This document shows positions 3,519 to 62,323 of a DNA stretch of 64,000 bases, in pieces. This stretch comes from Ascidiella aspersa (lineage: Eukaryota). The notes under the pieces are model-generated. The model had not been told where the DNA came from. It ran no database searches and saw nothing but the letters and a program-made list of their open reading frames with translations. The DNA is taken from the NCBI GenBank assembly GCA_963924565.1, contig OZ004608.1, positions 5,518,001 to 5,582,000 on the forward strand. Direction: 5' to 3'. Both the position numbers and the translations under genes were made by a program. Each line of letters opens with the position of its first letter. The first letter of the stretch is position 1.

Positions 3519-3584
3519 CGTCATTGCTTAGTAGACCTGCTACGTCATTGCAATGTTAGCTTATGGCATTGCTTTGTTGTGCAG

Positions 3585-4107: not shown

Positions 4108-4226
4108 GTAGGTAGAGTCAAGTTACTAATTGTGTTGGGATTCTCAACCGATTGGTCGCAACGTATAACTTATTGCCGTTTGTTTTGGTTGGTTTATCGA
4201 ATGCAATGGATTTGTATAGTTATAGT

Positions 4227-12896: not shown

Positions 12897-13517
12897 ATGG
12901 AGGAAGTCTGGCATTTCACCTGTTCCGTTGAGGGAATTCAATCGCGATACAAAAACGGAAACGAAGATTTTTACTCGGAGAAGGGAATGGTAGACGGAAC
13001 AATGTGGCATGTGGAGTTTGGGCCGGTTGACGACGACGACGAAAATGACGATTATGATGATAATCAGCTGGCTGGAACTTGTGGGTTGCTGAAGGTCTCA
13101 GACAGCCAGGCCATTCCGACTCATTGGGAAGACGCGAAATGGGCTGTGAAGCGTAATTTTAAAAAAGCTCGCTACATTGAAGAAAGTGAAAGCGAATTCG
13201 TGTCCGAATACAGCGATATAATGATGAAGAACATCGCCTTCACTCTTCGGGGCCAGGAAATGGAAACGCATTGCGGTTATGAAGAATCAAATGGCACTTG
13301 GGAGGTTGTGACGCATAGCGCGGTGACGCATTATGATGTTTCTGGTGAAGGTGTTCACGGTCTAATTACTTCGGCGAATGAAATTACTTTGAACCAAGCT
13401 GCCATCTACTTGGCCAAAACTTTTGGGCCTAGCTTGGTGAGATGGGTTAGCCGTTGCGTTAACCCCGGAGGGTGGAGATACTCTTGGTGGAAATCTTCGC
13501 TTAATAGAACACTTTAA
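12897..13517 (+). CDS. Array gene A1, unknown protein, 206 aa (stop read-through variant)
   Basis: First ATG at 12897; uninterrupted ORF; family TAG changed to TGG, adding 9 aa. Confidence 0.82.
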   Translation: MEEVWHFTCSVEGIQSRYKNGNEDFYSEKGMVDGTMWHVEFGPVDDDDENDDYDDNQLAGTCGLLKVSDSQAIPTHWEDAKWAVKRNFKKARYIEESESEFVSEYSDIMMKNIAFTLRGQEMETHCGYEESNGTWEVVTHSAVTHYDVSGEGVHGLITSANEITLNQAAIYLAKTFGPSLVRWVSRCVNPGGWRYSWWKSSLNRTL

Positions 13518-17787: not shown

Positions 17788-18381
17788 ATGGAAGAAGTGT
17801 GGCATTTCACCTTTCCTGTTGAGAGGATTCGACCGCAGTACGAAAACGGAAACGAAGATTTTTACTCGGAGAAGGGAATGGTAGACGGACAAATGTGGCA
17901 CGTGGAGTTTGGGCCGGTTGACGACGACGACGAAAATGACGATTATGATGATAATCAGCTGGCTGGAACTTGTGGGTTGCTGAAGGTCTCAGACAGCCAA
18001 CCCATTCCTTCTTACTGGAAAGACGCGAAATGGGCTGTGAAGCGAACTATCACCGGAGCTGAATCGATTGAAAACAGTGAAAGCGAATTCGTGCCCGAAT
18101 ACAGCGATATAATGATGAAGAACATCGCCTTCACCCTTCGGGGCCAAGGAATGGAAGAGTGCTGTAATGTTGAAGCCAGTATTGGCAGATTGCAGGTTGT
18201 TACGCATAGTGAGGTAAAGAAGTATGCTACTACCGGCAAAGGCGTACATGGTCTGATAAGTTCTGCAAATAAGGTTACTATGTACGAAGCTGCAACCTGC
18301 TTGGCCGATAAGTTCGGTTCTGGCGTTGTGAGATGGTTAGGCCGTTGCACCGATCCTGGAAGATGGCAGAATTCCTGGTAG
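17788..18381 (+). CDS. Array gene B1, unknown protein, 197 aa
   Basis: Intact ATG-TAG ORF, MEEVWHFTFPVERIR...PGRWQNSW. Confidence 0.85.
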   Translation: MEEVWHFTFPVERIRPQYENGNEDFYSEKGMVDGQMWHVEFGPVDDDDENDDYDDNQLAGTCGLLKVSDSQPIPSYWKDAKWAVKRTITGAESIENSESEFVPEYSDIMMKNIAFTLRGQGMEECCNVEASIGRLQVVTHSEVKKYATTGKGVHGLISSANKVTMYEAATCLADKFGSGVVRWLGRCTDPGRWQNSW

Positions 18382-19470: not shown

Positions 19471-20057
19471 GGCAACGAAGCGTTGTACTCAGAAACCGGA
19501 ATGAAGGACGGCGAAATGTGGCAGGTGAATTTTGGCCCAGTCGACGTTAATGATGACGATGACAGTAAAGATAACGTAGACGATAACGTAGAGGATGACT
19601 TCGATGATGAAGTCGACGATGATGACCAGCTAGCTGGCGTTCGTAGATTGCTGATGATATCTGACCTCCAGGCCATTCCGACTCATTAGGAAGAGGTGGA
19701 ATGGGCTGTGAAGCGAATTTTCACCGAAACTCGGTACATTAAAGAAAATGAAAGCGAATTCGTGTCCAAATACAGCGATACAATGATGAAGAATATTGCC
19801 TTTACACTTAGGGGCGAAGGAATAGAAGAGTTCTGCAATGCTGTAGTGTAGACAGTATTGGTGATTTGAAAGTTGTGACGCAATTTCGCGTCAAGACGTA
19901 TAGAAATTCTGGTAAATGCTTCCACGGCCTCATCACTTCAACTAGCGAGGTTACTTTTCATGAAGCTGCAACCTGCTTGGCCGAAAAGTTCGGTCCTGAT
20001 GTTGTGAGATGGTTAGTCCGTTGCACCGATCCTCAAATATGGCAAGATTCTTGGTAA
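19471..20057 (+). pseudogene. Array pseudogene P2
   Basis: Same 5' truncation and premature TAG as P1; +5 frameshift at ctgtagtgtagac. Confidence 0.88.
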
Positions 20058-25822: not shown

Positions 25823-26416
25823 ATGGAGGAAGTCTGGCATTTCACCTGTTCCGTTGAGGGGATTCGATCGCGATACAAAAACGGAAACGAAGATTTTTAC
25901 TCGGAGAAGGGAATGGAAGACGGAACAATGTGGCACGTGGAGTTTGGGCCGGTTGACGACGACGACGAAAATGGCGACTATGATGATAATCAGCTGGCTG
26001 GAACTTGTGGATTGCTGAAGGTCTCAGACAGCCAGGCCATTCCTTCTTACTGGAAAGACGCGAAATGGGCTGTGAAGCGAACTATCACCGGAGCTGAATC
26101 GATTGAAGAAAGTGAAAGCGAATTCGTGTCCGAATACAGCGCTACAATGATGAAGAACATCGCCTTCACTCTTCGGGGCCAGGAAATGGAAACGCATTGC
26201 GGTTATGAAGAATCCAATGGCACTTGGGAGGTTGAGACGCATGTGGAGGTGACGCATTATGATGATACTGGTGAATGTGTTCACGGTCTAATTACTTCGG
26301 CGAATGAAATTACTTTGAACCAAGCTGCCATCTACTTGGCCAAAACTTTTGGGCCTGGCTTGGTGAGATGGGTTAGCCGTTGCGTTAAACCCGGAGGGTG
26401 GAGATACTCTTGGTAG
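25823..26416 (+). CDS. Array gene A2, unknown protein, 197 aa
   Basis: Intact ORF MEEVWHFTCSVEGIR...PGGWRYSW. Confidence 0.85.
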   Translation: MEEVWHFTCSVEGIRSRYKNGNEDFYSEKGMEDGTMWHVEFGPVDDDDENGDYDDNQLAGTCGLLKVSDSQAIPSYWKDAKWAVKRTITGAESIEESESEFVSEYSATMMKNIAFTLRGQEMETHCGYEESNGTWEVETHVEVTHYDDTGECVHGLITSANEITLNQAAIYLAKTFGPGLVRWVSRCVKPGGWRYSW

Positions 26417-27629: not shown

Positions 27630-29464
27630 CAGTGTTTCTTAACCTTTTTCACCCCAGGGCGCACCTGTAAACCTTTCGAAACGTGGCGGTGCACCTGACG
27701 AGCGAGTCGACTGCTAACTTTGTTTTTTGCTGGCAGTTTTTATTACATCAGGCTCCCAATTCTATTATATATTAAACAGCTTGCGGAGTCGGTTAAAAAT
27801 AACCCGACTCCAACTCCCGAATCCGACTCCGGCCAAATGTGTGATTTCGTCAAATTCCGAGTCCGTCTGCAAACCTACAGCATTTAATTTTCCCATTTAC
27901 GTAACTAAATTAAGGTGGATTTTCAACAATCCCTTCATAGGGGTGTTATATCTCATCCAACCACAATACATTGCTGGAAAATATCCACGATATGCTATTT
28001 CGCCATTTTAATTTGCATTTGGCGGCATTATTAGTTCAAAAATTGGCACTGCGCACGTCGGACTCGGGACTCGGGACTCCATCAGTCCGATTTCAGCAAA
28101 ATAAATCGATTACAGTACGCCGAGTCTCAAAAACTACACTGACCTGCTATAAAATACGATGTGCTCAATAAGACATAACCTAAAAAGAAAGAAAATAAAT
28201 GAAATAGGCCATTCATGTTGTAAATTATGAAAACATACCGTATGTTAGTTAAAGTTCGATGGAAACACAGAATAAGCCCCAAGAGCAACAACATCTAACT
28301 CGGAATAAATCCAAAATGTAACGGAAAAAAACTAATAATGCCCAAAACTGTAAAAAAAACAGGGTATGGGACGATTAAAGGACATATTCTTGGCATCGGC
28401 CGTTTTTGTGCCATAGTGTTAGGGCACAGGATTGTTTGCCTCTGTTTGGGGTTAGGCGCGAGTAATGGGTAGAATTATAATTTGGGGGGAGTTTGTATTG
28501 AAGTTATGGGTGGGGTTTGGGTAGGGTTCCTCTTTTCCCCACATTTTTTTACACCCGGGAAACGGGATTGACAAATGAAACTTCCCGGGAATCCTGACGA
28601 AATTTTCGTGCCCTAATTACGTCATTATGATGATTAAAATTACTTTATATTAGCTCCAAACGTTTAATTAAGCTCATTTATGTTCTGTAGTATTGCTTCT
28701 GCAATCTTACAAGACGTTCTCGTATTAACGTCAGCACCCTTATTTGTTTTTTTTAGAAAACACGCGCATATTAGGCGTTTTTTTATTGGTAAAATAAATT
28801 TAATTACGTTTTTCCGCTGGTAAGCGCAAAAAAAGCAACTCAAGCAACGACTTTAATAGGTTTGGCAACATTTTTTTCTTTATATTAGTCAAAAACGATA
28901 ATTTTTTTTAAGTTTTGCTATGTTGCCGAATAACCGGGATTATAAAAAAAATTTCCCGGGATTCGGGATCGTTATTTCGCGGGAAAGCCCGGGAATTTCC
29001 CGTCGAAACATTCCCGGAGAGGAACCCTAGGTTTGGGGTTAAGTAAAAGGTAGGAAAGGCCTTATTCTTGCCATTTAGGCCTTATTCGGACGAATTGAGG
29101 TCTTATTTTGATTTAAACGCTATTACGAGTATTAGGTATTAGTCCTATTTTGGTCTTACTCCGAACTGTTTTATATGTCGAAGTAGCTGTTGCTTTAATT
29201 GTGGTCTTAAGGCGGAAGCCCCACTAGATTGCAATAGTTCCTCTTTTTTTGTTAGCTAAGAGCCAACATCAACCATTGGCACTTCAATAAGGGCTACGAA
29301 TCCAGTCATATTGCTCAGTGTTTATTCACAGAAAATAGTGACTAGAGTTTATTCTAAAATTATTCGCAAATTCTACAAATAATACAGAATTTTTGTAACA
29401 TTTTTTCCCATTTTCTCGCGGTGCACCTGGCCACCTTCCACGGCGCACCGGTTGAGAAACGCTG
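27630..29464. mobile_element. Non-autonomous composite hAT element, 1835 bp
   Basis: TIRs cagtgtttcttaacc / ggttgagaaacgctg; exact 8-bp TSD CTGTAGAG; empty site visible in P1. Confidence 0.92.
28522..29029. mobile_element. Nested hAT MITE with TAGGG termini, 508 bp
   Basis: TIRs tagggttcctct / agaggaacccta; exact 8-bp TSD GGTTTGGG; subterminal CCCGGGA motifs. Confidence 0.9.
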
Positions 29465-32451
29465 CTGTAGAGTGTAGACAGTGTTGGTGATTTGAAAGTT
29501 GTGACGCAATTTCGCGTCAAGACGTATAGAAATTCTGGTAAATGCTTCCACGTCCTCATCACTTCAACTATAGAGGTTACTTTTTATGAAGCTGCAACCT
29601 GCTTGGCCGAAAAGTTCGGTCCTGATGTTGTAAGATGGTTAGGCCGTTGCACCGATCCTCAAATATGGCAAGATTCTTGGCAAAGATATTATGATTGCGC
29701 TATTGTGCATAATGTTTCTGCAATAATTATTCGGCGACGTCGATTGTGACTATACAATTTGACGCAATAGTAAAATACAAACCATATTTAATTTGTACGC
29801 TTTTGTATTGGTGCTCGCTACAGAAAAAATGCAGCAAATTGAGAGTACACAATGCAACTAAGAGAAGTTTTTGGCAATAAAATGGGGACGTTTTTAAAAT
29901 GTCATCAATATTTGTGGCCAGAGCCGGATCTAGGCACGGGACCATGGTCCCCAAACTATATATTTTGCTAATTTTAACTATACCTAAGTAAAAAAACAAA
30001 TAGTTTTAGTATGTATAGCCCATTTTAAGGGTAACTTTGCAGACTTCCTTGAGGTATGACGTCACAAATTTCATCATAACGTGACGTCATAAAACATTTA
30101 ACCTTAGAAAAGCTGTTTTTTTCTAGCGCACAATCCTTCGCCCAAATGGAGCTGTAATACAGTCCAATAGGTTAATGGTATAGCAAAGGGTAAAAAAAAA
30201 CTATACGTTACGCATAAAGCACATAAAAAAGAGTCTTGCATATGTTCCGAAACAAAGGAATTTATCGTACAATTTAGCAAAAAATACGCTTTACGAAGTT
30301 TATGAGCGACACGATGCAACATACGACGAGCCAAATTCCAAGTGGGCTAAAAAGATTTTCGAAAAATGGACGAAAACGTTGTAACATGGATAGATGCTTG
30401 CCAAACGTTTTTGTAATACCGTGATAAAAGTAAAAATATATAAGAATCTATTTTGTGGGCATGGCCCTATGGCTCCACCTCTCTTGATTAGCGCCAGACA
30501 CTTTCAAAGGACTCGTGTGAAGTTTCAAAGTGCTTAGTGTTCAACCGCTTTAAATATGCCGTATTCAACACCGGCAACCAATAAACAGCTATTTCAAATC
30601 AAGGGGAAGTTGCTACGTAACCTCACGTGACTGCTCTTAAAACCGCCTATTGGCTGGAATAGGCGTCATTTCGGAGGTCACGCGTACCTCGTGCCACTTG
30701 ATAACGTTAAAGAGAACGCTGACTATAAAGAAGGGCATACTCAATAAGACCTACAAGGCAACAATATCTAAAGCGGAATAGTCTTTAATACCGTAGTTTT
30801 ACGACCAACGACATAATAAAGCCAAATACAAAGTAATATCCATGACAGAATAAGATCTAAATCGTCTAAAAATTATCCACGCCAGATATACATACGTGTG
30901 TTTTTAAATAAACATATATTACATATCCATAATAAAGCCACATATAGCAATATCCACGACAGAATAAGATCTAAATCGTCTAAAATTCCAACCGTCAAAC
31001 ATCTCCCAACCGACAATTAAACCGCCACTGTGGTATCTTTTCACATCTAGGAAGACAATACCCTAGTAACCTGGTCATACAAGTACTTACAGAAGGCAAA
31101 TTTATATGTCGTCCACATTCCCAATGTTTCGAGAAATTCCTATTCCCTAACTTTTATCGCTTTGGCACGTTTGTCGTCCTTAAATTAAGTTCTACCCATG
31201 ACTGATTTTTTAAATACGTCAACAGTCGAACAAAAAACATCTAACAACCATCCATTAGTAGCGCACGTTTAATTCGCGAAAGCGAATGATCCTTATAATA
31301 TTGTTTTTGTGCAAATAAAAACAAAATGCTGCGCCAAAGTTTTGGTAATTGTTTCGAGAAAGTCGTTTGTGGGGACAACTTGGCAAACATTTCACTATGC
31401 ACATTCAGTAACCAGATTTTACTCCGCATTTGTCCAAAGATACAGCGTAATATATCTGCTAACAATTAACTCATTAATATCTGCGGAAGTCTTGTTGCGT
31501 ATGCATAGACGCGTTTCCTGTAGGTGTATGCAAGTATAATTACGTTAAGTAAGAACACTAGCCCTATTCTATATACTGGTTTACGTTTAATCATATGAAT
31601 TTGATAGTCATTTATTTTTTTGTATTAAAGTAGATTATAGTCTCTGCGTGCGCACCAGGCATAGACGTGTTTGCTGTACGTTAATAAATAGATAATACAT
31701 GTGACGTATCTATTTTTTGTTTGTATCATATTCTGGTTTTCTAAACGATATTGTTCGAGTTTCTTAAGACTCATGCAGCCATCATTACCTTATGAAATCG
31801 TGGTAAAATATTACTAAATATGGTGTAATAGGGACAATTAGTGTGTGTTTTCGCAGTTGAAACAGTTTGTCTAGACTTTTCTGTCTTGGTAATAGGAAGT
31901 CATTTGTAAGTTCCACTGGTTCATGAAGTATATTTCGCCACAAAACACGGCATCATCAGTCTCTTAATGAAATACAATTTATTTGAAATTTATAGCTTCT
32001 ATTCGAATAAGAGACTGTTGTCTTATTTTGTTGCGAAATATATTTCTCTTTTAAGCGATTAAAACTTATAAATGACTGACGTTGACCAAGACAGGAAAGT
32101 CTACTCTAAAGAAGAGTTGCTTCCATTTGAAGTCGTCATTTATTTGTAAGGGCGACGAGACATCTTCATATTTTACACAATCAGTTTGCCATTGATACAG
32201 TTATGGTTGCCTTTAAAACGAGGTAAAGCGCTTAGCAATGTCAAAACAGGGCCCCATTCGGTTTAAATACCTGGTTTAAGCTTTGCGTGTTCTTATAGTC
32301 ACAATCTTTTTACCTGAATTATTTACGTATTTTCTTGCTGCATTTATTTGGCTTTAACTCGCTCCACTATTTTGGTCAGACAGGTATTTTCCAATTGTTT
32401 GAAAAAAACAGCTTTTATTGATTGTTTGCTGCTGTTCCGATAAAGATAAAA

Positions 32452-37736: not shown

Positions 37737-38330
37737 ATGGAGGAAGTCTGGCATTTCACCTGTTCCGTTGAGGGGATTCGATCGCGATACAAAAACGGAA
37801 ACGAAGATTTTTACTCGGAGAAGGGAATGGAAGACGGAACAATGTGGCACGTGGAGTTTGGGCCGGTTGACGACGACGACGAAAATGGCGACTATGATGA
37901 TAATCAGCTGGCTGGAACTTGTGGATTGCTGAAGGTCTCAGACAGCCAGGCCATTCCTTCTTACTGGAAAGACGCGAAATGGGCTGTGAAGCGAACTATC
38001 ACCGAAGCTGACTCGATTGAAAAAAGTGAAAGCGAATTCGTGTCCGAATACAGCGATATAATGATGAAGAATATCGCCTTCACTCTTCGGGGCCAAGGAA
38101 TGGAAGAGTGCTGTAATGTTGAAGCCAGTATTGGCAGATTGCAGGTTGTTACGCATAGTGAGGTAAAGAAGTATGCTACTACCGGCAAAGGCGTACATGG
38201 TCTCATAAGTTCTGCAAATAAGGTTACTATGTACGAAGCTGCAACCTGCTTGGCCGATAAGTTCGGTTCTGGCGTTGTGAGATGGTTAGGCCGTTGCACC
38301 GATCCTGGAAGATGGCAGAATTCCTGGTAG
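37737..38330 (+). CDS. Array gene AB, chimera with A-type N half and B-type C half, 197 aa
   Basis: N half matches A2 (TCSVEGIRSRYK, ENGDYDD); sequence after IAFTLRGQ matches B1. Confidence 0.85.
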   Translation: MEEVWHFTCSVEGIRSRYKNGNEDFYSEKGMEDGTMWHVEFGPVDDDDENGDYDDNQLAGTCGLLKVSDSQAIPSYWKDAKWAVKRTITEADSIEKSESEFVSEYSDIMMKNIAFTLRGQGMEECCNVEASIGRLQVVTHSEVKKYATTGKGVHGLISSANKVTMYEAATCLADKFGSGVVRWLGRCTDPGRWQNSW

Positions 38331-41709: not shown

Positions 41710-42303
41710 ATGGAGGAAGTCTGGCATTTCACCTGTTCCGTTGAGGGGATTCGATCGCGATACAAAAACGGAAACGAAGATTTTTACTCGGAGAAGGGAA
41801 TGGAAGACGGAACAATGTGGCACGTGGAGTTTGGGCCGGTTGACGACGACGACGAAAATGACGATTATGATGATAATCAGCTGGCTGGAACTTGTGGGTT
41901 GCTGAAGGTCTCAGACAGCCAGGCCATTCCTTCTTACTGGAAAGACGCGAAATGGGCTGTGAAGCGAACTATCACCGGAGCTGAATCGATTGAAGAAAGT
42001 GAAAGCGAATTCGTGTCCGAATACAGCGATACAATGATGAAGAACATCGCCTTCACTCTTCGGGGCCAGGAAATGGAAACGCATTGCGGTTATGAAGAAT
42101 CAAATGGCACTTGGGAGGTTGAGACGCATGTGGAGGTGACGCATTATGATGATACTGGTGAAGGTGTTCACGGTCTAATTACTTCGGCGAATGAAATTAC
42201 TTTGAACCAAGCTGCCATCTACTTGGCCAAAACTTTTGGGCCTGGCTTGGTGAGATGGGTTAGCCGTTGCGTTAAACCCGGAGGGTGGAGATACTCTTGG
42301 TAG
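41710..42303 (+). CDS. Array gene A3, 197 aa
   Basis: Intact ORF; 3 aa differences from A2. Confidence 0.85.
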   Translation: MEEVWHFTCSVEGIRSRYKNGNEDFYSEKGMEDGTMWHVEFGPVDDDDENDDYDDNQLAGTCGLLKVSDSQAIPSYWKDAKWAVKRTITGAESIEESESEFVSEYSDTMMKNIAFTLRGQEMETHCGYEESNGTWEVETHVEVTHYDDTGEGVHGLITSANEITLNQAAIYLAKTFGPGLVRWVSRCVKPGGWRYSW

Positions 42304-43516
42304 CAATCTTCGCTTAATACAACACTTTAATTCGCTGATCTTTAATATTTCCCTTTTAACGCAATATTGAAACACATGCGATTAACAATGTTTATCAGTA
42401 TTGTTTGTTTCTGTCTATTGGTTAACAAATAATCTTACCTAATCGTGCTCCTGTAATGATTATTCATATTTTGTCGTTATGTGCTTCTTAAAATACCTAA
42501 CGAAAATCATTCTTCAACGAAATTTCAATATAAAGATAACTGCGCATTCAACGTTTATATGTTTATCGCCTCGTCTGCGTGCTTTTCTATGTTCGTAATT
42601 GGTTTTCGCATCTATAGCTTTTCACCACCTACACTATAGCTGTGTATAACCACAAGTATACAAAATCAGGTGATGTTGAATTACCGAACCGAGATGAAGT
42701 AAATATTTCATATGATGTGTGTGTTTGTTTTTTGTCGCATTATATATTCAAGTGTGTATCAATTGTAGCTGCTTAAACAATAAAATGTAATTGTTAAATT
42801 ATCGTGATTGTAAATTTAATTCAAAAAATTGTAACTTAATATACGTTAATGCTAATGTAAAATGACGTCATTTAACATGGAATCAGCTAGTCTTAAAATG
42901 TGTGCCGTGGAAGTTTTGTAAGTTTGAAAAATAACAAATGTGTAACACATAGGAAAATAGGCAAGCATGTGAGACTAAATGCACACTATCCATTACAAAA
43001 TTAATGATAATTAGGCTATTGCCTTATATACAGTTTGTTAGGGACAGTTGTAACGTGTTTTGCGGGGATTTTGCCGCTAATATTTTAGTGGACTGCAAAC
43101 CAAAAGGTTTGAGAATAAAATTGCGTGTCTGCAAATTTGGCAACGAAGCGTTGTACTCAGAAACCGGAATGAAGGACGGCGAAATGTGGCAGGTGAATTT
43201 TGGCCCAGTCGACGTCAATGATGACGATGACAGTAAAGATAACGTAGACGATAACGTAGAGGATGACTTCGATGATGAAGTCGACGATGATGACCAACTA
43301 GTTGGAATTTGTAGATTGCTGATGATATCTGACCTCCAGGCCATTCCGACTCATTAGGAAAAGGTGGAATGGGCTGTGAAGCGAATTTTCACCGAAACTC
43401 GGTACATTAAAGAAAGTGAAAGCGAATTCGTGTCCAAATACAGCGATACAATGATGAAGAATATTGCCTTTATACTCAGGGGCGAAGGAATAGAAGAGTT
43501 CTGCAATGCTGTAGAG

Positions 43517-45351
43517 CAGTGTTTCTTAACCTTTTTCACCCCAGGGCGCACCTGTAAACCTTTCGAAACGTGGCGGCGCACCTGACGAGCGAGTCGACTG
43601 CTAACTTTGTTTTTTGCTGGCAGTTTTTATTACATCAGGCTCCCAATTCTATTATATATTAAACAGCTTGCGGAGTCGGTTAAAAATAACCCGACTCCAA
43701 CTCCCGAATCCGACTCCGGCCAAATGTGTGATTTCGTCAAATTCCGAGTCCGTCTGCAAACCTACAGCATTTAATTTTCCCATTTACGTAACTAAATTAA
43801 GGTGGATTTTCAACAATCCCTTCATAGGGGTGTTATATCTCATCCAACCACAATACATTGCTGGAAAATATCCACGATATGCTATTTCGCCATTTTAATT
43901 TGCATTTGGCGGCATTATTAGTTCAAAAATTGGCACTGCGCACGTCGGACTCGGGACTCGGGACTCCATCAGTCCGATTTCAGCAAAATAAATCGATTAC
44001 AGTACGCCGAGTCTCAAAAACTACACTGACCTGCTATAAAATACGATGTGCTCAATAAGACATAACCTAAAAAGAAAGAAAATAAATGAAATAGGCCATT
44101 CATGTTGTAAATTATGAAAACATACCGTATGTTAGTTAAAGTTCGATGGAAACACAGAATAAGCCCCAAGAGCAACAACATCTAACTCGGAATAAATCCA
44201 AAATGTAACGGAAAAAAACTAATAATGCCCAAAACTGTAAAAAAAACAGGGTATGGGACGATTAAAGGACATATTCTTGGCATCGGCCGTTTTTGTGCCA
44301 TAGTGTTAGGGCACAGGATTGTTTGCCTCTGTTTGGGGTTAGGCGCGAGTAATGGGTAGAATTATAATTTGGGGGGAGTTTGTATTGAAGTTATGGGTGG
44401 GGTTTGGGTAGGGTTCCTCTTTTCCCCACATTTTTTTACACCCGGGAAACGGGATTGACAAATGAAACTTCCCGGGAATCCTGACGAAATTTTCGTGCCC
44501 TAATTACGTCATTATGATGATTAAAATTACTTTATATTAGCTCCAAACGTTTAATTAAGCTCATTTATGTTCTGTAGTATTGCTTCTGCAATCTTACAAG
44601 ACGTTCTCGTATTAACGTCAGCACCCTTATTTGTTTTTTTTAGAAAACACGCGCATATTAGGCGTTTTTTTATTGGTAAAATAAATTTAATTACGTTTTT
44701 CCGCTGGTAAGCGCAAAAAAAGCAACTCAAGCAACGACTTTAATAGGTTTGGCAACATTTTTTTCTTTATATTAGTCAAAAACGATAATTTTTTTTAAGT
44801 TTTGCTATGTTGCCGAATAACCGGGATTATAAAAAAAATTTCCCGGGATTCGGGATCGTTATTTCGCGGGAAAGCCCGGGAATTTCCCGTCGAAACATTC
44901 CCGGAGAGGAACCCTAGGTTTGGGGTTAAGTAAAAGGTAGGAAAGGCCTTATTCTTGCCATTTAGGCCTTATTCGGACGAATTGAGGTCTTATTTTGATT
45001 TAAACGCTATTACGAGTATTAGGTATTAGTCCTATTTTGGTCTTACTCCGAACTGTTTTATATGTCGAAGTAGCTGTTGCTTTAATTGTGGTCTTAAGGC
45101 GGAAGCCCCACTAGATTGCAATAGTTCCTCTTTCTTTGTTAGCTAAGAGCCAACATCAACCATTGGCACTTCAATAAGGGCTACGAATCCAGTCATATTG
45201 CTCAGTGTTTATTCACAGAAAATAGTGACTAGAGTTTATTCTAAAATTATTCGCAAATTCTACAAATAATACAGAATTTTTGTAACATTTTTTCCCTTTT
45301 TCTCGCGGTGCACCTGGCCACCTTCCACGGCGCACCGGTTGAGAAACGCTG
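43517..45351. mobile_element. Duplicate of the 1835-bp hAT element
   Basis: Same TIRs, same TSD CTGTAGAG and same site, so copied by segmental duplication. Confidence 0.92.
44409..44916. mobile_element. Duplicate nested TAGGG-terminus MITE
   Basis: Same TIRs and TSD GGTTTGGG. Confidence 0.9.
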
Positions 45352-48337
45352 CTGTAGAGTGTAGACAGTGTTGGTGATTTGAAAGTTGTGACGCAATTTC
45401 GCGTCAAGACGTATAGAAATTCTGGTAAATGCTTCCACGTCCTCATCACTTCAACTATAGAGGTTACTTTTTATGAAGCTGCAACCTGCTTGGCCGAAAA
45501 GTTCGGTCCTGATGTTGTAAGATGGTTAGGCCGTTGCACCGATCCTCAAATATGGCAAGATTCTTGGCAAAGATATTATGATTGCGCTATTGTGCATAAT
45601 GTTTCTGCAATAATTATTCGGCGACGTCGATTGTGACTATACAATTTGACGCAATAGTAAAATACAAACCATATTTAATTTGTACGCTTTTGTATTGGTG
45701 CTCGCTACAGAAAAAATGCAGCAAATTGAGAGTACACAATGCAACTAAGAGAAGTTTTTGGCAATAAAATGGGGACGTTTTTAAAATGTCATCAATATTT
45801 GTGGCCAGAGCCGGATCTAGGCACGGGACCATGGTCCCCAAACTATATATTTTGCTAATTTTAACTATACCTAAGTAAAAAAACAAATAGTTTTAGTATG
45901 TATAGCCCATTTTAAGGGTAACTTTGCAGACTTCCTTGAGGTATGACGTCACAAATTTCATCATAACGTGACGTCATAAAACATTTAACCTTAGAAAAGC
46001 TGTTTTTTTCTAGCGCACAATCCTTCGCCCAAATGGAGCTGTAATACAGTCCAATAGGTTAATGGTATAGCAAAGGGTAAAAAAAAACTATACGTTACGC
46101 ATAAAGCACATAAAAAAGAGTCTTGCATATGTTCCGAAACAAAGGAATTTATCGTACAATTTAGCAAAAAATACACTTTACGAAGTTTATGAGCGACACG
46201 ATGCAACATACGACGAGCCAAATTCCAAGTGGGCTAAAAAGATTTTCGAAAAATGGACGAAAACGTTGTAACATGGATAGATGCTTGCCAAACGTTTTTG
46301 TAATACCGTGATAAAAGTAAAAATATATAAGAATCTATTTTGTGGGCATGGCCCTATGGCTCCACCTCTCTTGATTAGCGCCAGACACTTTCAAAGGACT
46401 CGTGTGAAGTTTCAAAGTGCTTAGTGTTCAACCGCTTTAAATATGCCGTATTCAACACCGGCAACCAATAAACAGCTATTTCAAATCAAGGGGAAGTTGC
46501 TACGTAACCTCACGTGACTGCTCTTAAAACCGCCTATTGGCTGGAATAGGCGTCATTTCGGAGGTCACGCGTACCTCGTGCCACTTGATAACGTTAAAGA
46601 GAACGCTGACTATAAAGAAGGGCATACTCAATAAGACCTACAAGGCAACAATATCTAAAGCGGAATAGTCTTTAATACCGTAGTTTTACGACCAACGACA
46701 TAATAAAGCCAAATACAAAGTAATATCCATGACAGAATAAGATCTAAATCGTCTAAAAATTATCCACGCCAGATATACATACGTGTGTTTTTAAATAAAC
46801 ATATATTACATATCCATAATAAAGCCACATATAGCAATATCCACGACAGAATAAGATCTAAATCGTCTAAAATTCCAACCGTCAAACATCTCCCAACCGA
46901 CAATTAAACCGCCACTGTGGTATCTTTTCACATCTAGGAAGACAATACCCTAGTAACCTGGTCATACAAGTACTTACAGAAGGCAAATTTATATGTCGCG
47001 ACATTCCCAATGTTTCGAGAAATTCCTATTCCCTAACTTTTATCGCTTTGGCACGTTTGTCGTCCTTAAATTAAGTTCTACCCATGACTGATTTTTTAAA
47101 TACGTCAACAGTCGAACAAAAAACATCTAACAACCATCCATTAGTAGCGCACGTTTAATTCGCGAAAGCGAATGATCCTTATAATATTGTTTTTGTGCAA
47201 ATAAAAACAAAATGCTGCGCCAAAGTTTTGGTAATTGTTTCGAGAAAGTCGTTTGTGGGGACAACTTGGCAAACATTTCACTATGCACATTCAGTAACCA
47301 GATTTTACTCCGCATTTGTCCAAAGATACAGCGTAATATATCTGCTAACAATTAACTCATTAATATCTGCGGAAGTCTTGTTGCGTATGCATAGACGCGT
47401 TTCCTGTAGGTGTATGCAAGTATAATTACGTTAAGTAAGAACACTAGCCCTATTCTATATACTGGTTTACGTTTAATCATATGAATTTGATAGTCATTTA
47501 TTTTTTTGTATTAAAGTAGATTATAGTCTCTGCGTGCGCACCAGGCATAGACGTGTTTGCTGTACGTTAATAAATAGATAATACATGTGACGTATCTATT
47601 TTTTGTTTGTATCATATTCTGGTTTTCTAAACGATATTGTTCGAGTTTCTTAAGACTCATGCAGCCATCATTACCTTATGAAATCGTGGTAAAATATTAC
47701 TAAATATGGTGTAATAGGGACAATTAGTGTGTGTTTTCGCAGTTGAAACAGTTTGTCTAGACTTTTCTGTCTTGGTAATAGGAAGTCATTTGTAAGTTCC
47801 ACTGGTTCATGAAGTATATTTCGCCACAAAACACGGCATCATCAGTCTCTTAATGAAATACAATTTATTTGAAATTTATAGCTTCTATTCGAATAAGAGA
47901 CTGTTGTCTTATTTTGTTGCGAAATATATTTCTCTTTTAAGCGATTAAAACTTATAAATGACTGACGTTGACCAAGACAGGAAAGTCTACTCTAAAGAAG
48001 AGTTGCTTCCATTTGAAGTCGTCATTTATTTGTAAGGGCGACGAGACATCTTCATATTTTACACAATCAGTTTGCCATTGATACAGTTATGGTTGCCTTT
48101 AAAACGAGGTAAAGCGCTTAGCAATGTCAAAACAGGGCCCCATTCGGTTTAAATACCTGGTTTAAGCTTTGCGTGTTCTTATAGTCACAATCTTTTTACC
48201 TGAATTATTTACGTATTTTCTTGCTGCATTTATTTGGCTTTAACTCGCTCCACTATTTTGGTCAGACAGGTATTTTCCAATTGTTTGAAAAAAACAGCTT
48301 TTATTGATTGTTTGCTGCTGTTCCGATAAAGATAAAA

Positions 48338-51823: not shown

Positions 51824-52417
51824 ATGGAAGAAGTGTGGCATTTCACCTTTCCTGTTGAGAGGATTCGACCGCAGTACGAAAACGGAAACGAAGATTTTTA
51901 CTCGGAGAAGGGAATGGTAGACGGACAAATGTGGCACGTGGAGTTTGGGCCGGTTGACGACGACGACGAAAATGACGATTATGATGATAATCAGCTGGCT
52001 GGAACTTGTGGGTTGCTGAAGGTCTCAGACAGCCAACCCATTCCTTCTTACTGGAAAGACGCGAAATGGGCTGTGAAGCGAACTATCACCGGAGCTGAAT
52101 CGATTGAAAAAAGTGAAAGCGAATTCGTGCCCGAATACAGCGATATAATGATGAAGAACATCGCCTTCACCCTTCGGGGCCAAGGAATGGAAGAGTGCTG
52201 TAATGTTGAAGCCAGTATTGGCAGATTGCAGGTTGTTACGCATAGTGAGGTAAAGAAGTATGCTACTACCGGCAAAGGCGTACATGGTCTGATAAGTTCT
52301 GCAAATAAGGTTACTATGTACGAAGCTGCAACCTGCTTGGCCGATAAGTTCGGTTCTGGCGTTGTGAGATGGTTAGGCCGTTGCACCGATCCTGGAAGAT
52401 GGCAGAATTCCTGGTAG
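51824..52417 (+). CDS. Array gene B2, 197 aa
   Basis: As B1 except SIENS>SIEKS. Confidence 0.85.
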   Translation: MEEVWHFTFPVERIRPQYENGNEDFYSEKGMVDGQMWHVEFGPVDDDDENDDYDDNQLAGTCGLLKVSDSQPIPSYWKDAKWAVKRTITGAESIEKSESEFVPEYSDIMMKNIAFTLRGQGMEECCNVEASIGRLQVVTHSEVKKYATTGKGVHGLISSANKVTMYEAATCLADKFGSGVVRWLGRCTDPGRWQNSW

Positions 52418-53506
52418 CCGTATTAGAATTGTGATATTGTGCATAATGTTCAAGCCAATTATTCGGCAACCTTGATTGTGATTATACCACTTTAATGCAA
52501 TATTAAAACACAAACATTACTAATTTGAACCCTTTGTATTGCTTCGGTGTTCGCTACAGAAAAGAAAGCAGTAATTTGTTAGTGCACGTTAAAGAGCTTT
52601 TATCAATAAATTGGGGCGTTTTTAAAAGGTCATTATTATTTGTTGCCAGAGCCGGACCCAGAGTGGCACGAGGTCACGACCCCCCAAACAATATTTTTGC
52701 TAATTTTACCACCTACAACCTAAGTGACAAAATAAATAGTTTTATAGTTAAAATAAGTTATTCTGGTATTTATTTGTCTTACTTTCAGTAAATTATTCTT
52801 GCATAAGAAATCGTGCTCCTGTAATGATTATTCATATTTGTTCGGTATGTGCTTCTTCAAATCACCAATGAAAACCTTGCTTTTACGAAATTTAAGTATA
52901 AAGATAATGCGCATTCAACGTTTGCATATTTATCGCCCCGTCTGCGTGCTTTAGTATTTTCGTAATTGGTTTTCGCATCTATAGCTTCTCACCACCTACT
53001 TTATAGCTGTGCATAACCACAGGTATACAAAATCAGGTGATGTAGAATTACCGAACCGAGATAAAGTAAATAAATCATATGATGTGTGTGTTTGTGTTTC
53101 GTCGCATTATATATTCAAGTGTGTATCAATTGTAGCTGCTTAAACAATAAAATTTAATTGTTAAATTATCGTGATTGTAAATTTAATTCAAAAAATTGTA
53201 ACTTAATATACGTTAACGCTAATGTAAAATGACGCCATTTAACATGGAATCAGCTAGTCTTAAAATGTGTGCCGTGGAAGTTTTGTAAGTTTGAAAAATA
53301 ACTAATGTGTAACACATAGGAAAATAGGCAAGCATGTGAAACTAAATGCAACACTATCCATTACAAAATTAATGATAATTAGGCTATTGCCTTATATACT
53401 ATTTGTTAGGGACAGTGGTAACGTGTTTTGCGGGGATTTTGCCGCTAATATTTTAGTGGACTGCAAACCAAAAGGTTTGAGAATAAAATTGCGTGTCTGC
53501 AAATTT

Positions 53507-54092
53507 GGCAACGAAGCGTTGTACTCAGAAACCGGAATGAAGGACGGCGAAATGTGGCAGGTGAATTTTGGCCCAGTCGACGTCAATGATGACGATGACG
53601 TTAAAGATAACGTAGACGATAACGTAGAGGATGACTTCGATGATGAAGTCGACGATGATGACCAACTAGCTGGCTTTGTAGATTGCTGAGGATATCTGAC
53701 CTCCAGGCCATTCCGACTCATTAGGAAAAGGTGGAATGGGCTGTGAAGCGAATTTTCACCGAAACTCGGTACATTAAAGAAAGTGAAAGCGAATTCGTGT
53801 CCAAATACAGCGATACAATGATGAAGAATATTGCCTTTACACTTAGGGGCGAAGGAATAGAAGAGTGCTGCAATGCTGTAGTGTAGACAGTATTGGTGAT
53901 TTGAAAGTTGTGACGCAATTTCGCGTCAAGACGTATAGAAATTCGTGTAAATGCTTCCACGGCCTCATCACTTCAACTAGCGAGGTTACTTTTCATGAAG
54001 CTGCAACCTGCTTGGCCGAAAAGTTCGGTCCTGATGTTGTGAGATGGTTAGTCCGTTGCACCGATCCTCAAATATGGCAAGATTCTTGGTAA
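53507..54092 (+). pseudogene. Array pseudogene P5
   Basis: 5' truncation, premature TAG, extra frameshifts. Confidence 0.88.
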
Positions 54093-56782
54093 AGATATTT
54101 TGATTGCGCTATTGTGCATAATGTTTCTGCAATAATTATTCGGCGACGTCGATTGTGACTATACAATTTGACGCAATAGTAAAATACAAACCATATTTAA
54201 TTTGTACGCTTTTGTATTGGTGTTCGCCACAGAAAAAATGCATCAAATTGAGAGTACACAATGCAACTAAGAGAAGTTTTTGGCAATAAAATGGGGGCGT
54301 TTTTAAAATGTCATCAATATTTGTGGCCAGAGCCGGATCTAGGCACGGGACCATGGCCCCCAAACTATATATTTTGCTAATTTTAACTATACCTAAGTAA
54401 AAAAACGAATAGTTTTAGTATGTATAGCCCATTTTAAGGGTAACTTTGCAGACTTCCTTGAGGTATGACGTCACAAATTTCATCATAACGTGACGTCATA
54501 AAACATTTAACCTTAGAAAAGCTGTTTTTCTCTAGCGCACTATACTACAAATGGAGATATAATACAGTCCAATAGGTTAATGGTATAGCAAAGGTTTAAA
54601 ATAAAAACTATACGTTACGCATAAAGCACATAAAAAAGAGTTTTGCATATGTTCCGAAACAAAGGAATTTATCGTACAATTTAGCAAAAAATACGCTTTA
54701 CGAAGTTTATGACACGATGCAACATACGACGTGACACGATGCAATGACACGATGCAACATACGACGAGCCAAATTCCAAGTGGGCTAAAAAGATTTTCGA
54801 AAAATGGACGAAAACGTTGTAACATGGATAGATGCTTGCCAAACGTTTTTGTAATACCGTGGTAAAAGTAAAAATATATAAGAATCTATTTTGTGGGCAT
54901 GGCCCTATGGCTCCACCTCTCTTGATTAGCGCCAGACACTTTCAAAGGACTCGTGTGAAGTTTCAAGTGCTTAGTGTTCAATCGCTTTAAATATGCCGTA
55001 TTCAACACCGGCAACCAATAAACAGCTATTTTAAATCAGGTGAAGTTGCTACGTAACATCACGTGACTGCTCTTAAAACCACCTATTGGCTGGAATAGGC
55101 GTCATTTCGAAGGTCACGCGTACCTCGTGCCACTTGATAACGTTGAAGAGAACGCTGACTATAAAGAAGGGCACACTCAATAAGACCTACAAGGCAACAA
55201 TATCTAAAGCGGAATAGTCTTTAAAACCGTAGTTTTACGACCAACGACATAATAAAGCCAAATACAAAGTAATATCCATGACAGAATAATATCTAAATCG
55301 TCTAAAATTCCAACTGTCAAACATCTCCCAACCGACAATTAAACCGCCACTGTGGTATCTTTTCACATCTAGGAAGACAATACCCTAGTAACCTGGTCAT
55401 ACAAGCACTTCTAGAAGGCAATTTTATATGTCGTCCACATTCCCAATGTTTCGAGACATTCCTATTCCCTAACATTTATCGCTTTGACACGATTGTTGTC
55501 CTTAAATTAAGCTCTACCCATAACTGATTTTTTAAATACGTCAAGGGTCGAACAAAAAATCATCTAACAACCATCTATAGTAGCGCACGTATAATTGGCG
55601 GAAGCGAATGATCCTTATTGTATTGTTTTTTGTGCAAATAAAAACAAAATGCTGCGCCAAAGTTTTGGTAATTGTTTCGAGAAAGTCGTTTCTGAGGACC
55701 ACTTGGCAAACATGTCACTATGCAAATTCAGTAACCAGATTTTACTTCCGCATTGGTCCAAAGATACAGCGTAATATATCTGCTAACAATTTCTCATTAA
55801 TATCTGCGGAAGTGGTCTTTTCGTCTTGTTGCGTATGCAAAGACGCGTTTCCTGTAGGTGTATGCAAGTATAATTACGTTAAGTAAGAACACTAGCCCTA
55901 TTCTATATACTGGTTTACGTTTAATCATATGAATTTGATAGTCATTTATTTTTTTGTATTAAAGTAGATTATAGTCTCTGCGTGCGCACCAGGCATAGAC
56001 GTGTTTGCTGTACGTTAATAAATAGATAATACATGTGACGTATCTATTTTTTGTTTGTATCATATTCTGGTTTTCTAAACGATATTGTTCGAGTTTCTTA
56101 AGACTCATGCAGCTATTACCTTTTGAAATCGTGGTAAAATATTACTAAATATGGTGTAATAGGGACAATTAGTGTGTGTTTTCGCAGTTGAAACAGTTTG
56201 TCTAGACTTTTCTGTCTTGGTAATAGGAAGTCATTTGTAAGTTCCACTGGTTCATGAAATATATTTCGCCACAAAACACGGCATCATCAGTCTCTTAATG
56301 AAATACAATTTATTTGAAATTTATAGCTTCTATTCGAATAAGAGACTGTTGTCTTATTTTGTTGCAAAATATATTTCTCTTTTAAGCGATTAAAACTTAT
56401 AAATGACTGACGTTGACCAAGACAGGAAAGTCTACTCTAAAGAAGAGTTGCTTCCATTTGAAGTCGTCATTTAATTGTAAGGGCGACGAGACATCTTCAT
56501 ATTTTACACAATCAGTTTGCCATTGATACAGTTATGGTTGCCTTTAAAACGAGGTAAAGCGCTTAGCAATGTCAAAACAGGGCCCCATTCGGTTTAAATA
56601 CCTGGTTTAAGCTTTGCGTGTTCTTATAGTCACAATCTTTTTACCTGAATTATTTACGTATTTTCTTGCTGCATTTATTTGGCTTTAGCTCGCTCCACTA
56701 TTTTGCTCAGGCAGGTATTTTCCAATTGTTTGAAAAAAACACCTTTTATTGATTGTTTGCTGCTGTTCCGATAAAGATAAAA

Positions 56783-57355
56783 ATGCAGGAAGTGTGGCCT
56801 TTCGCCTTTCCCGTTCAGACGATTATACCGCGATACGAAAACGGAAACGAAGAATTGTACTCGGAATGCGGGATGGAAGACAGACAAATGTGGTACGTGG
56901 AGTTTGGGCCTGCATATCTCAGTACTGGTACCCATCTGGCTGGAAATTGTGGATTGCGGAGGGTGTCAGACGGTCAACCCATTCCGTCTCGTTGGAATGA
57001 CGTGGATAGGGCTCTTCAGAGAATATTCACAGGAGCTTACGACACGGAAAATGAAGTAGTTGCATTCCGATCTGATTACAGCGATACAATGATGAAGAAT
57101 ATTGCCTTCACACTTCGGGGCCAGGGAATGGAACAGTGCTGCGGTTATGTAGACTCAAATGGCTCTTGGGAGCTTGAGACGCATGGCGCGGTGACGCATT
57201 ATGATGATACTGGTGTAGGTGTTCACGGTCTAATTACTTCGGCGAATGAAATCGCTTTGAACGAAGCTGCCATCTACTTGACCAGCAAGTTCCCTGGCTT
57301 GGTGAGATGGGTTAGCCGTTGCGTTAACCCCGAAGGGTGGCAATACTCTTGGTAG
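56783..57355 (+). CDS. Array gene D, divergent C-like paralog, 190 aa
   Basis: Intact ORF MQEVWPFAFPVQTII...PEGWQYSW within C-type flanks. Confidence 0.85.
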   Translation: MQEVWPFAFPVQTIIPRYENGNEELYSECGMEDRQMWYVEFGPAYLSTGTHLAGNCGLRRVSDGQPIPSRWNDVDRALQRIFTGAYDTENEVVAFRSDYSDTMMKNIAFTLRGQGMEQCCGYVDSNGSWELETHGAVTHYDDTGVGVHGLITSANEIALNEAAIYLTSKFPGLVRWVSRCVNPEGWQYSW

Positions 57356-60238
57356 CAATTAAAAATCTTCGGATTGTGTAGATAAAATACAACAGTTTAA
57401 TTCGCTGATCTTTAATATATCTCTTTTAACGCAAAATTGAAAAACATGCGATTATCAATTTGTTCTAGTATCGAGGCTTAATTGTGTTTGTCTAAAATGT
57501 TTAATGAATAATCTTGCATAAGTAATCGTGCTCCTGAAATGATTATTTATATTTGTTCGTTATGTGCTTCTTCAAATACTTACCTCGCTTTTACGAAATT
57601 TAAGTATAAAGATAATGCGCATTCAACGTTTGCATATTTATCGCCCGTCTGCGTGCTTTAGTATTTTCGTAATTGGTTTTCGCATCTATAGCTTCTCACC
57701 ACCTACTTTATAGCTGTGTATAACCACAAGTATACAAAATCAGCTGATGTAGAATTACCGAACCGAGATAAAGTAAATAATTTATGAGATATGTGTGTTT
57801 GTTTTTGTCGCATTATATATTCAAGTGTGTATCAATTGTAGCTGCTTAAACAATAAAATTGACTTGTTAAATCATCGTGATTGTTCACATTCTGTAAGCT
57901 TCGCTTCCGGTCATGTCATAGTTATGGATAGTTATAATTATATCGATTCATTGCGATTTATGAGGAAGCCTTGTAAATAGGGAAATTAAACTTAAGCCTC
58001 TTGCGTTATGGTGAGAAATTGTAAGAGGAATATGGATGCCCCGAGGAATATGGATGCCGGTATATCCATTTTACCCATAGCTTCCAAACGTAGCGTGTAA
58101 ACTAAATATACAATTGTAACTAAATATAAGGTAACGCTAATGTAAATGACGTCATTTGACATGGAATAAGTTACTTATTCAGTACATTTTGCCCCAAAAC
58201 TTGGGTATCGATATCGCAACCCACTACATACTATTAATAAAGGTAACCTCGCGATTGTTAGTTCCATCCCAATTTGCAAAAAAACCCTACCCCAACAGTA
58301 ACCCTACAACACATATACACAAGGTCTGTTGTCTGGCGTTCGCACAGCATGTAGCCATAGACATGAACTTACAGCTGTTAGCTTTGTGAAGCGTTTGCCG
58401 CTATTCAATTTATAAATAAATAAATAAATTTAATTCTGCCCCTTTAGATTCCACGCTTTTTCTCATAAAGATATTCTTACATAAAGTTATTGAAATCAAA
58501 GTAAAATGATATTATAGTTACTGCAATAGTTAAAATTAGTATAGTTTATCTGTCCTTTTTTGCTCAAACTAGTTACTTCTTATTCAAGCCAATACGAAGT
58601 TATTTTTGTCATATTAACCTCCGCCTTACAAAATACCCTTTGCCCCGAGATGAATATTTGTTTTATTACACAACGCAAGCATTCTTTCTTACGAGAGCAA
58701 GGTTTCGTCGTAAAACAAATAAAAGCTTTAACTATGTTGGTAATTTGCAACTACTAGTCGTAAGCGATGGCTTATATAATTGCAATCTAAAAATCAAAAG
58801 ACATTTAATTGCAATCTAAAAATAAACCGGGGATAAAAAGGATTATTAGAAGGTTGTTTGAATTTATGCATTTATTGAGAAATTGTCCGACTTTGTATAG
58901 GCGTAAATTGCAGACACGCAATTTTATTCTCAAACCTTTGGGTTTGCAGTCCACTAAATATTAGCGGCAAAATCCCTGCAAAACACGTTACAACTGTCCC
59001 TAGCAAACTGTATATAAGGCAATAGCCTAATTATCATTAATTTTGTAGTGGAATTTATCATTACTTTTTGTAGCACTTTTGTAGTGGAGTGTGCATTTTG
59101 GTCGCACGCGTACCCATTTTCTTATTTGTTACACATAAGTTATTTTTCAAACTTACAAAACTTTCACGGCACGCAGTTTAAGAATAGCTGACTTTAAATG
59201 TCGTTTAACCACGTACTGATAGTAGTTCTTACAATAATTTCTTGGGGGCTTTTCGAATGTATAATATTGAAATGCTACTGATATAGGGTGTAAGCGAACA
59301 GGCGTATTCTGAGAATCACCAAATTCAACAAGTTTCTGCGGGCCACTGTGGCACTCTCGTACTTTACCACTGCCCCAAGACAAGGTTCTTTTTACCAACT
59401 ATTACTCTATATTCGTGTATGTCGAACAACTGGAAATTATTTTTCCAAAGTTTGAGTAATTGAAAAGTAGCGCCAAACTAAATCGAACATTCGCATCTTA
59501 TGCTTTAGCGCACTTTACTTGGATATAAGCATACTTAACCATATTGCACCTACTCGCTATATTTCGACTAACATCAACAATTTCGTAGGTTTTTTGCATG
59601 AGATAACTCTCGTGACGTATGATTAAAACTTATAGTTGATTAATAAAAGTTGTTCTGTGCACTCACATAGTAAAACTAAATTGGTCGAAAACTATTTCGT
59701 AAGCCGTGAAATTATTAATTGACTCAACAACTTACACACGAAAGGCTGCAGAATTCGTAAGCGCTTCTAAAGTAACAATTCGAGTAGTTATAGGTTCAAT
59801 TAGGATCGCTATAAGGCGGAATCGATTTTTTGTTGGGCAGCGACGTCAGATGTTGACACACAGCCGCGACGTCATATATATATATAAGCAATACGACATC
59901 GTATATCGATTCAACAACGTTATACAGCCGAAAGACCATTTGTTAATAAAGCGGTTCTGAATATTTCAGTTCGACTGACAAAAATCTCGCATAAATCAGC
60001 TCATATTTGACAAATTAGCTGAAAACCGTTCTTAAAAATCCTGCTTGACGGTTCGAATCCCTGGTTTAAGCTTTGCATTTTCTTAGGCAGAATTGTTTTG
60101 CCTAGGTTATTTTAAGTCTTTTCTGGCTGCATTTATTTGGCTTTAACTCGCTCTACTATTTTAGTCATGCAGGAATTTTTCAATTGTTGAAAAAACACCA
60201 TTTATTGGTTGATTGCTGCTGTTCCGATAAAGATAATA

Positions 60239-60832
60239 ATGGAAGAAGTGTGGCATTTCACCTTTCCTGTTGAGAGGATTCGACCGCAGTACGAAAACGG
60301 AAACGAAGATTTTTACTCGGAGAAGGGAATGGTAGACGGACAAATGTGGCACGTGGAGTTTGGGCCGGTTGACGACGACGACGAAAATGACGATTATGAT
60401 GATAATCAGCTGGCTGGAACTTGTGGGTTGCTGAAGGTCTCAGACAGCCAACCCATTCCTTCTTACTGGAAAGACGCGAAATGGGCTGTGAAGCGAACTA
60501 TCACCGGAGCTGAATCGATTGAAAACAGTGAAAGCGAATTCGTGCCCGAATACAGCGATATAATGATGAAGAACATCGCCTTCACCCTTCGGGGCCAAGG
60601 AATGGAAGAGTGCTGTAATGTTGAAGCCAGTATTGGCAGATTGCAGGTTGTTACGCATAGTGAGGTAAAGAAGTATGCTACTACCGGCAAAGGCGTACAT
60701 GGTCTGATAAGTTCTGCAAATAAGGTTACTATGTACGAAGCTGCAACCTGCTTGGCCGATAAGTTCGGTTCTGGCGTTGTGAGATGGTTAGGCCGTTGCA
60801 CCGATCCTGGAAGATGGCAGAATTCCTGGTAG
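60239..60832 (+). CDS. Array gene B3, 197 aa
   Basis: Protein identical to B1. Confidence 0.85.
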   Translation: MEEVWHFTFPVERIRPQYENGNEDFYSEKGMVDGQMWHVEFGPVDDDDENDDYDDNQLAGTCGLLKVSDSQPIPSYWKDAKWAVKRTITGAESIENSESEFVPEYSDIMMKNIAFTLRGQGMEECCNVEASIGRLQVVTHSEVKKYATTGKGVHGLISSANKVTMYEAATCLADKFGSGVVRWLGRCTDPGRWQNSW

Positions 60833-61921: not shown

Positions 61922-62323
61922 GGCAACGAAGCGTTGTACTCAGAAACCGGAATGAAGGACGGCGAAATGGGCTGTGAAGCGAATTTTCACCGAAACTCGG
62001 TACATTAAAGAAAGTGAAAGCGAATTCGTGTCCAAATACAGCGATACAATGATGAAGAATATTGCCTTTATACTCAGGGGCGAAGGAATAGAAGAGTGCT
62101 GCAATGCTGTAGTGTAGACAGTATTGGTGATTTGAAAGTTGTGACGCAATTTCGCGTCAAGACGTATAGAAATTCTGGTAAATGCTTCCACGGCCTCATC
62201 ACTTCAACTAGCGAGGTTACTTTTCATGAAGCTGCAACCTGCTTGGCCGAAAAGTTCGGTCCTGATGTTGTGAGATGGTTAGTCCGTTGCACCGATCCTC
62301 AAATATGGCAAGATTCTTGGTAA
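61922..62323 (+). pseudogene. Array pseudogene P6 with ~185-bp internal deletion
   Basis: ggcgaaatg joined to ggctgtgaag, removing the acidic loop; +5 frameshift retained. Confidence 0.88.

Follow-up and report, generated by a model that had tools for sequence, protein, structure and literature searches.

A recombining tandem gene array in Ascidiella aspersa with probable diversifying selection on a domain predicted to be Rep-like and catalytically inactive

Why do two sister types of a gene differ mainly in their amino acids when the DNA around them is nearly the same? This question is raised by a 64,000-nucleotide stretch of the Ascidiella aspersa genome (C2:5518001-5582000 on contig OZ004608.1, hereafter the window; assembly of 308.6 Mb in 75 contigs). 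Here, copy D (56783..57355, plus strand) is an intact single-ORF gene with its ATG at 56783 and a TAG at 57355, encoding 190 aa. Its sister type is represented on the same strand by three copies of 197 aa: C1 (22748..23341), copy C2 (32452..33045), which has a CDS identical to that of C1, and C3 (48338..48931), which has one amino-acid change relative to C1. A sequence-only reading of the window had pointed to about 34 amino-acid-changing codons between C1 and D. We count 39, four of which sit in an ambiguously aligned stretch beside the first indel, among 44 differing codons in all. The remaining five are exactly the synonymous codons listed by that reading (ttt/ttc, cct/ccc, ccg/cct, cac/cat and ggc/ggt), and its three frame-preserving indels are confirmed, with lengths of 6, 15 and 12 nt. 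All of the charge-shifting changes that it named are likewise found (K>E three times, K>Q twice, P>D, Y>D, G>E and L>E), and net charge moves from -4 to -12 across the comparison. The 3′ end, described as almost identical over ~25 codons, is in fact identical over the final 26.

The near-identity of the flanks also holds: 30/1998 sites differ in the upstream 2 kb versus 53/564 in the CDS (Fisher p 8e-17). The duplicated unit around D (53037..59404, plus strand) is at least 6.4 kb long and 96.8% identical to the C1 unit, with divergence highest in the CDS. Divergence in 200-bp bins is 0-6.5% upstream, rises to 15.5% and then 8.5% over the opening 400 bp of the CDS, and drops to 2% beyond the stop. 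Taken by itself, the D/C1 pair exceeds chance only marginally: NG86 dN/dS is 1.86-2.31 (bootstrap P(dN<=dS) 0.036-0.006), binomial p is 0.12-0.03 depending on kappa, single-hit codons alone give 31 N to 5 S (p 0.083), and 0-fold sites (38/368) versus 4-fold sites (3/68) give p 0.088. Multi-nucleotide changes, a class overcounted by single-step models, account for eight of the 44 differing codons. The pair is the most extreme of 153 pairs of copies and was picked as such, while mean pairwise dN/dS is 0.62-0.96 in bins with dS above 0.05. Alternatively, the assembly may have placed two haplotypes in tandem as C and D, in which case the replacement excess would remain.

The window holds 11 intact copies of this single-ORF gene (190-206 aa) and 6 broken ones. 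A genome search with D gives at least 42 matches, of which 41 lie in C2:5.40-5.60 Mb and one on contig C4. Full-length close copies number 22 (20 intact from ATG to stop, two without a start, 18 distinct), besides many fragments, and the three distant copies, at 31-39% identity to D, are all intact. The left arm of the array lies on the minus strand and the window arm on the plus strand. In addition to C and D, the window arm contains two acidic-insert copies (12897..13517, 206 aa; 25823..26416, 197 aa), two A-type copies (17788..18381 and 51824..52417, both 197 aa), a copy at 60239..60832 with a CDS identical to that at 17788, a 197-aa copy with a net charge of -22 (41710..42303), and an intact mosaic (37737..38330) whose 5′ half resembles the copy at 41710 and whose 3′ half resembles that at 17788. 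The ~190 bp upstream of the D start codon (56590..56782, plus strand), which are 81-86% identical in most other array copies, are likely a 5′ UTR or promoter. The likely 3′ UTR (57356..57767, plus strand) is covered by sense RNA of a relative, with nine molecules beginning at 57767. A MITE-like palindromic repeat lies upstream of C and D (window 56203-56434) and is dispersed over many contigs at 70-80%.

Among the broken copies, that at 53507..54089 (plus strand) carries a stop and frameshifts, and an inverted piece of spacer replaces its 5′ end. Three others lie at 14327-14900, 19471-20054 and 61922-62320, and two are split by about 1.8 kb (27252-29680 and 43139-45567). The inverted spacer copy (window 53250-53505 versus 58905-59191) forms the 5′ end of broken copies and gives their 105-117-aa ORFs a foreign N-terminus. 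As a neutral control, the broken copies differ too little from one another (4/6 aligned). A PHI test rejects a single tree for the close copies (0/2000 permutations), such that the array combines the tandem copies, pseudogenes and recombination by which birth-and-death families are defined. A small picture of tract-wise shuffling is the pair at L002:1946-2554 and L002:7811-8413 (both minus strand), which have identical flanks and differ by one 1-bp deletion and two double-base replacements (Q/P and Y/R); RNA run X8 carries the P and R letters at these sites. Blocks at 25.5-33.5 kb and 41.4-49.4 kb of the window are 97-100% identical at a spacing of ~15.9 kb, which reflects either a very recent duplication or a haplotype entered twice.

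Several unrelated features lie nearby. A GIY-YIG endonuclease fragment, likely of a Penelope-like retroelement, sits just left of the plus-strand arm (window 7060-7542, minus strand). A second, unrelated ORF occurs in three copies on the opposite strand in the left arm (L011:5668-6132, plus strand; C2:5445339; C2:5462122), and the one copy scanned has no Pfam match. Mucin-like Ser/Thr-rich and collagen-repeat ORFs flank the array (L016:8124-8909, L023:8608-9231 and L025:591-1196). In this genome, a cellulose-synthase match is followed 3 kb later on the same strand by a GH6 match; the CesA-GH6 fusion is a tunicate marker.

Reads bear on whether D is real and whether it is expressed. In DNA run X1, a 244-nt contig covers 56834-57077 of D with two differences; thus, D is not an assembly error and is real. 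At four sites, none of the 12-16 reads per site in DNA run X7 (1.9 Gb read, about 6x coverage if entirely host) has the D-specific letter, and the D-specific letter at 56958 is missing from DNA run X2. D is therefore likely polymorphic in presence. In RNA run X8, of which about 6% was read, the copy at C2:5405808-5406413 reaches a depth of 25-32 in sense and under 1 in antisense. No D or C transcripts are seen in that portion: the reads falling on D carry the letters of other copies at D-specific sites (25/25 at 56958).

For tests of selection that allow for recombination, we aligned the 18 distinct close copies and kept 144/219 codon columns (gap-free and more than three columns from a gap); our codon-model code reproduces the IQ-TREE M0 result (lnL -2387.76, dN/dS 0.894). 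Family-wide, dN/dS is 0.78-0.89, falling to 0.68 without C and D. On one tree, the M1a/M2a comparison gives 2dL 34.1, and when the alignment is partitioned at the two breakpoints favoured by AICc (D positions 69 and 117), it gives 17.6 (p 1.5e-4), with 16.9 for M8a/M8. The signal in the M1a/M2a comparison weakens with each added breakpoint, to 11.1 with three and 6.8 with eight blocks. The two-breakpoint model assigns about 38% of codons to dN/dS 0.11, 49% to 1 and 13% to 3.3, with posteriors above 0.75 at I15, P16, R17, E32, Q35, Y86, G135, E156 and A158. When neutral-plus-purifying evolution is simulated on an eight-block mosaic and analysed with two breakpoints, none of 25 runs reaches the real value of 17.9 (maximum 10.5). 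Without C and D, 2dL falls to 8.2, which is exceeded by 1/25 null runs. The C and D branches, which were chosen after the data were seen, have dN/dS 3.8 on one tree (p 0.011 against 1) and 18 on partitioned trees (p 0.002), where other branches have 0.7-0.8. A tree-free count gives 0.70 overall and an N/S of 2.09 versus 1.71 under the purifying-plus-neutral null (5/150 simulations as high). Singleton changes in the family number 53 N to 21 S (dN/dS 0.84), and sites with at least four amino acids are not in excess (19 observed versus 23.7 under the null). The sequence-only inference of dN/dS above 1 thus stands for part of the sites and along the C and D branches, whereas the family average is about 0.8. 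We conclude that a codon class above 1 exists after recombination is allowed for, that it is of moderate strength, and that it is concentrated on C and D.

Purifying selection on the protein core is clear, with 53/144 codons invariant versus 24 expected if all were neutral. It is this constraint, together with the sense RNA of one member, that supports the earlier proposal of functional ORFs, rather than the replacement excess itself. The proposed binding surface fares less well: the selected sites lean to loops (10/16) without significance, and neither their avoidance of strands (p 0.07) nor their bias between lobes (11 versus 5, p 0.19) is significant.

What kind of protein is under selection? 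D has no match in Pfam, a word-index protein search, the Atlas or PDB sequences, and the 45 family members give nothing beyond chance level against Pfam and PHROGs. Five structure models (pLDDT 92-94) predict a two-lobed alpha/beta protein, in which the C-lobe (about residues 100-190) is HUH-Rep-like and without catalytic motifs. All six best structural matches are HUH Reps, while Foldseek of the PDB gives nothing clear, and MATH, a first guess from an N-terminal pattern, is absent among the structural matches listed. An internal duplication of the two lobes has a plausible register, with a profile-comparison probability of 1% (E 0.047). Motif I of HUH Reps is UUTU, with the circovirus form AFTLNN, and the aligned proteins retain its F in 45/45, T in 40/45 and L in 43/45. 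The HUH/HUQ metal ligands of motif II are missing: D has G146-V-H148-G149, and 30/35 outside homologues carry N or C where the first His would be, with His in none of the common states. Motif III, YxxK, is missing as well, as D ends in EGWQYSW without a Lys. S189 of D falls on PCV2 Tyr96 in a register taken from the end of the aligned range and assuming no gap, and Y191 of homologue P0003 falls on the same residue, where Tyr occurs in just 9/35 homologues. Nor does an oligomerisation domain or helicase follow, as the ORFs stop 0-9 residues past the last conserved Trp. Identity as an HUH nuclease is rejected by motifs II and III. By inspection of the sequences, the array proteins show neither an evident signal peptide nor an evident membrane segment, and LRR, NB-ARC and TIR give no match in them.

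Named homologues come only from Phallusia and Clavelina; no relatives were found in viral contigs or prokaryote genomes, P0003 has no Atlas match either, and a Viral_Rep search of this genome gave no match, with its controls silent too. The listings of mostly open-access literature that we searched show no description of the domain family. The stand-alone form is shared with the uncharacterised Clavelina lepadiformis protein CAK8687945.1 (P0014) and with ENA/JGI proteins (190-225 aa, 19-31% identity to D). ENA/JGI contigs carry several copies each (e.g., six on a 262-kb contig), and clustering therefore recurs. In the tree, ten copies from this genome form one clade (100/96), and hence the array arose in this lineage. 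A Tyr-Cys before the last helix is kept in most outside homologues (Y 28/35), where 9/10 copies from this genome have Arg.

The connection to kinases comes from Phallusia mammillata, in which CAB3265597.1 (P0018), a RIP kinase 1-like protein, carries the domain at 374-544 behind the kinase (E 3.4e-7 to the family profile); the array copies, as far as seen, are stand-alone ORFs. On metagenome contig L019, the domain at 8972 is preceded on its own strand by kinase exons (2873-4491), with a pyrimidine-AG acceptor-like tract immediately before the domain; a second fusion is thus likely. In the tree, these two domains form long branches whose grouping is weak. Beside the kinase-domain gene of that contig lie three related ORFs in tandem (L019:10393-12092, minus strand; 147-195 aa), none of which has a significant Pfam match. 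No kinase-fused form was found in this genome, and none of 7649 candidates was a longer fused form, which is weak evidence because the same search missed P0018. The left arm does contain two RIP-like kinase genes, 97-98% alike (C2:5387-5392 kb and 5423-5428 kb; L001:584-4468 with L024:9451-9741, and L034:4341-8904, minus strand), and a kelch gene follows the leftmost. About 12 kb separates the exons at 5423-5428 kb from the nearest intact copy, which lies downstream of them on the same strand; no splice from an upstream exon to an array copy is found among the RNA joints listed. Because matches to the Phallusia kinase number at least 79 in this genome, many of them in tandem clusters on contigs C2 and C3, this proximity is modest evidence and may be chance. 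Overall, the protein appears to be an undescribed, tunicate-associated domain with a C-lobe that is predicted to be Rep-like and catalytically dead, and that is kinase-fused elsewhere.

Could the C/D difference have arisen under relaxed constraint? C and D would then be redundant genes drifting near dN/dS 1, tracts from older paralogues would raise CDS divergence above that of the homogenised flanks, and the pair would stand out because the most extreme one was the one picked. We regard this as a possible though lesser explanation. In 16/44 differing codons, both states are present in other paralogues, which is consistent with gene conversion and means that part of the difference is shuffled old variation; the remaining 28 codons are 26 N to 2 S (p 0.017). 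Synonymous sites of D/C1 also exceed the flank (about 7/142 versus 30/1998, p 0.009), and the single-hit result, the many broken copies and the lack of D transcripts in the portion of X8 that was read fit drift as well. Simulations cut both ways: the best pair reaches the observed Z in 65/200 runs if every codon is neutral (1/200 under purifying-plus-neutral evolution), whereas the C/D pair itself does so in 2/200 fully neutral runs. Against drift, the branch tests reject dN/dS = 1, 3/3 indels are in frame, no stop has arisen, and the invariant core is retained in both C and D. On balance, we consider diversifying selection on C/D to be probably real.

Even so, the selected function might be the recognition of self versus non-self, as in gamete incompatibility or allorecognition, or might lie in some other host conflict, rather than in anti-parasite defence. 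The evidence of selection and of presence/absence would be the same, and highly polymorphic recognition loci are known in tunicates. Such tunicate recognition proteins are mostly surface proteins, however, whereas the array proteins have no evident signal peptide or membrane segment and the sole named fusion is to a RIP-like kinase; we find this alternative improbable. Far less probable still is a rolling-circle mobile element (Replitron-like or a piece of an endogenous CRESS virus) that amplifies in tandem as these units and encodes the protein as its Rep. The predicted C-lobe, terminal helix included, is closest to HUH Reps and the FTL motif is conserved, but D lacks HUH/HUQ and YxxK, nothing follows the Rep-like lobe, the copies are at one locus with one ancient copy on C4 rather than dispersed, the three distant copies are intact, and viral and prokaryotic contigs hold no relatives. 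An active element is thus largely refuted.

We therefore put at about an even chance the reading that these are working host genes in a recombining tandem array, whose C/D difference likely reflects diversifying selection and whose protein, with its predicted dead HUH-Rep-like lobe, is likely an intracellular immune recognition module. Under this immune reading, unequal crossing-over would make copies, gene conversion would keep the spacers alike while shuffling coding tracts, and selection would retain new surface variants, as different copies would bind different forms of a parasite or virus molecule. A fixed role would fall to the conserved C-terminal face, made up of the FTL strand and the final 26 codons: it might, for example, relay the signal to a RIP-like kinase, which is joined to the domain in some tunicates and encoded next door here. 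An extension that we think unlikely is that tunicates domesticated the Rep nuclease domain of an ssDNA virus or plasmid, then disabled and duplicated it, and now deploy it to sense such viruses or decoy them, as a RIP kinase fusion in some species and here as free copies in an arms-race array next to RIP kinase genes.

Fast-evolving immune arrays are already known as a kind. New here is an array encoding a domain without a Pfam, PHROG, PDB-sequence or Atlas match that is named to date in tunicates only, the sister group of vertebrates. For the RIP-like kinases, which are much expanded in this genome, it is a candidate sensor domain, and the array supplies natural variants for ligand finding. 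If the Rep resemblance is ancestry, a viral replication domain was turned to host defence; if the decoy reading is true, this would be an animal integrated-decoy receptor made from a viral replication protein. If neutral drift is the answer, the locus is a multigene array of the ordinary kind whose domain has no name.

Of the systems already described, the predicted C-lobe, terminal helix included, is closest to HUH Rep endonuclease domains (pMV158 RepB, nanovirus and circovirus Rep, SIRV1 ORF119). Replitrons share a eukaryotic CRESS-like Rep fold found solely by profile or structure, but their HUQ and GYxxK are intact, a second, helical domain follows the Rep, and they are multicopy transposons in algae, plants and protists (PMC10288648). 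The array proteins have none of these, and Replitron identity is rejected by the lack of HUQ/YxxK, by the absence of anything after the Rep-like lobe and by copies at one locus plus one on C4. In its behaviour, the array is closest to immune families evolving by birth and death. Sea-urchin Sp185/333 and TLRs and plant NLR clusters with integrated domains are such families. While the protein is unrelated to theirs and we infer an immune role here with evenly balanced confidence, the array has in common with them tandem copies, pseudogenes, mosaic alleles, presence/absence variation and a subset of codons with dN/dS above 1.
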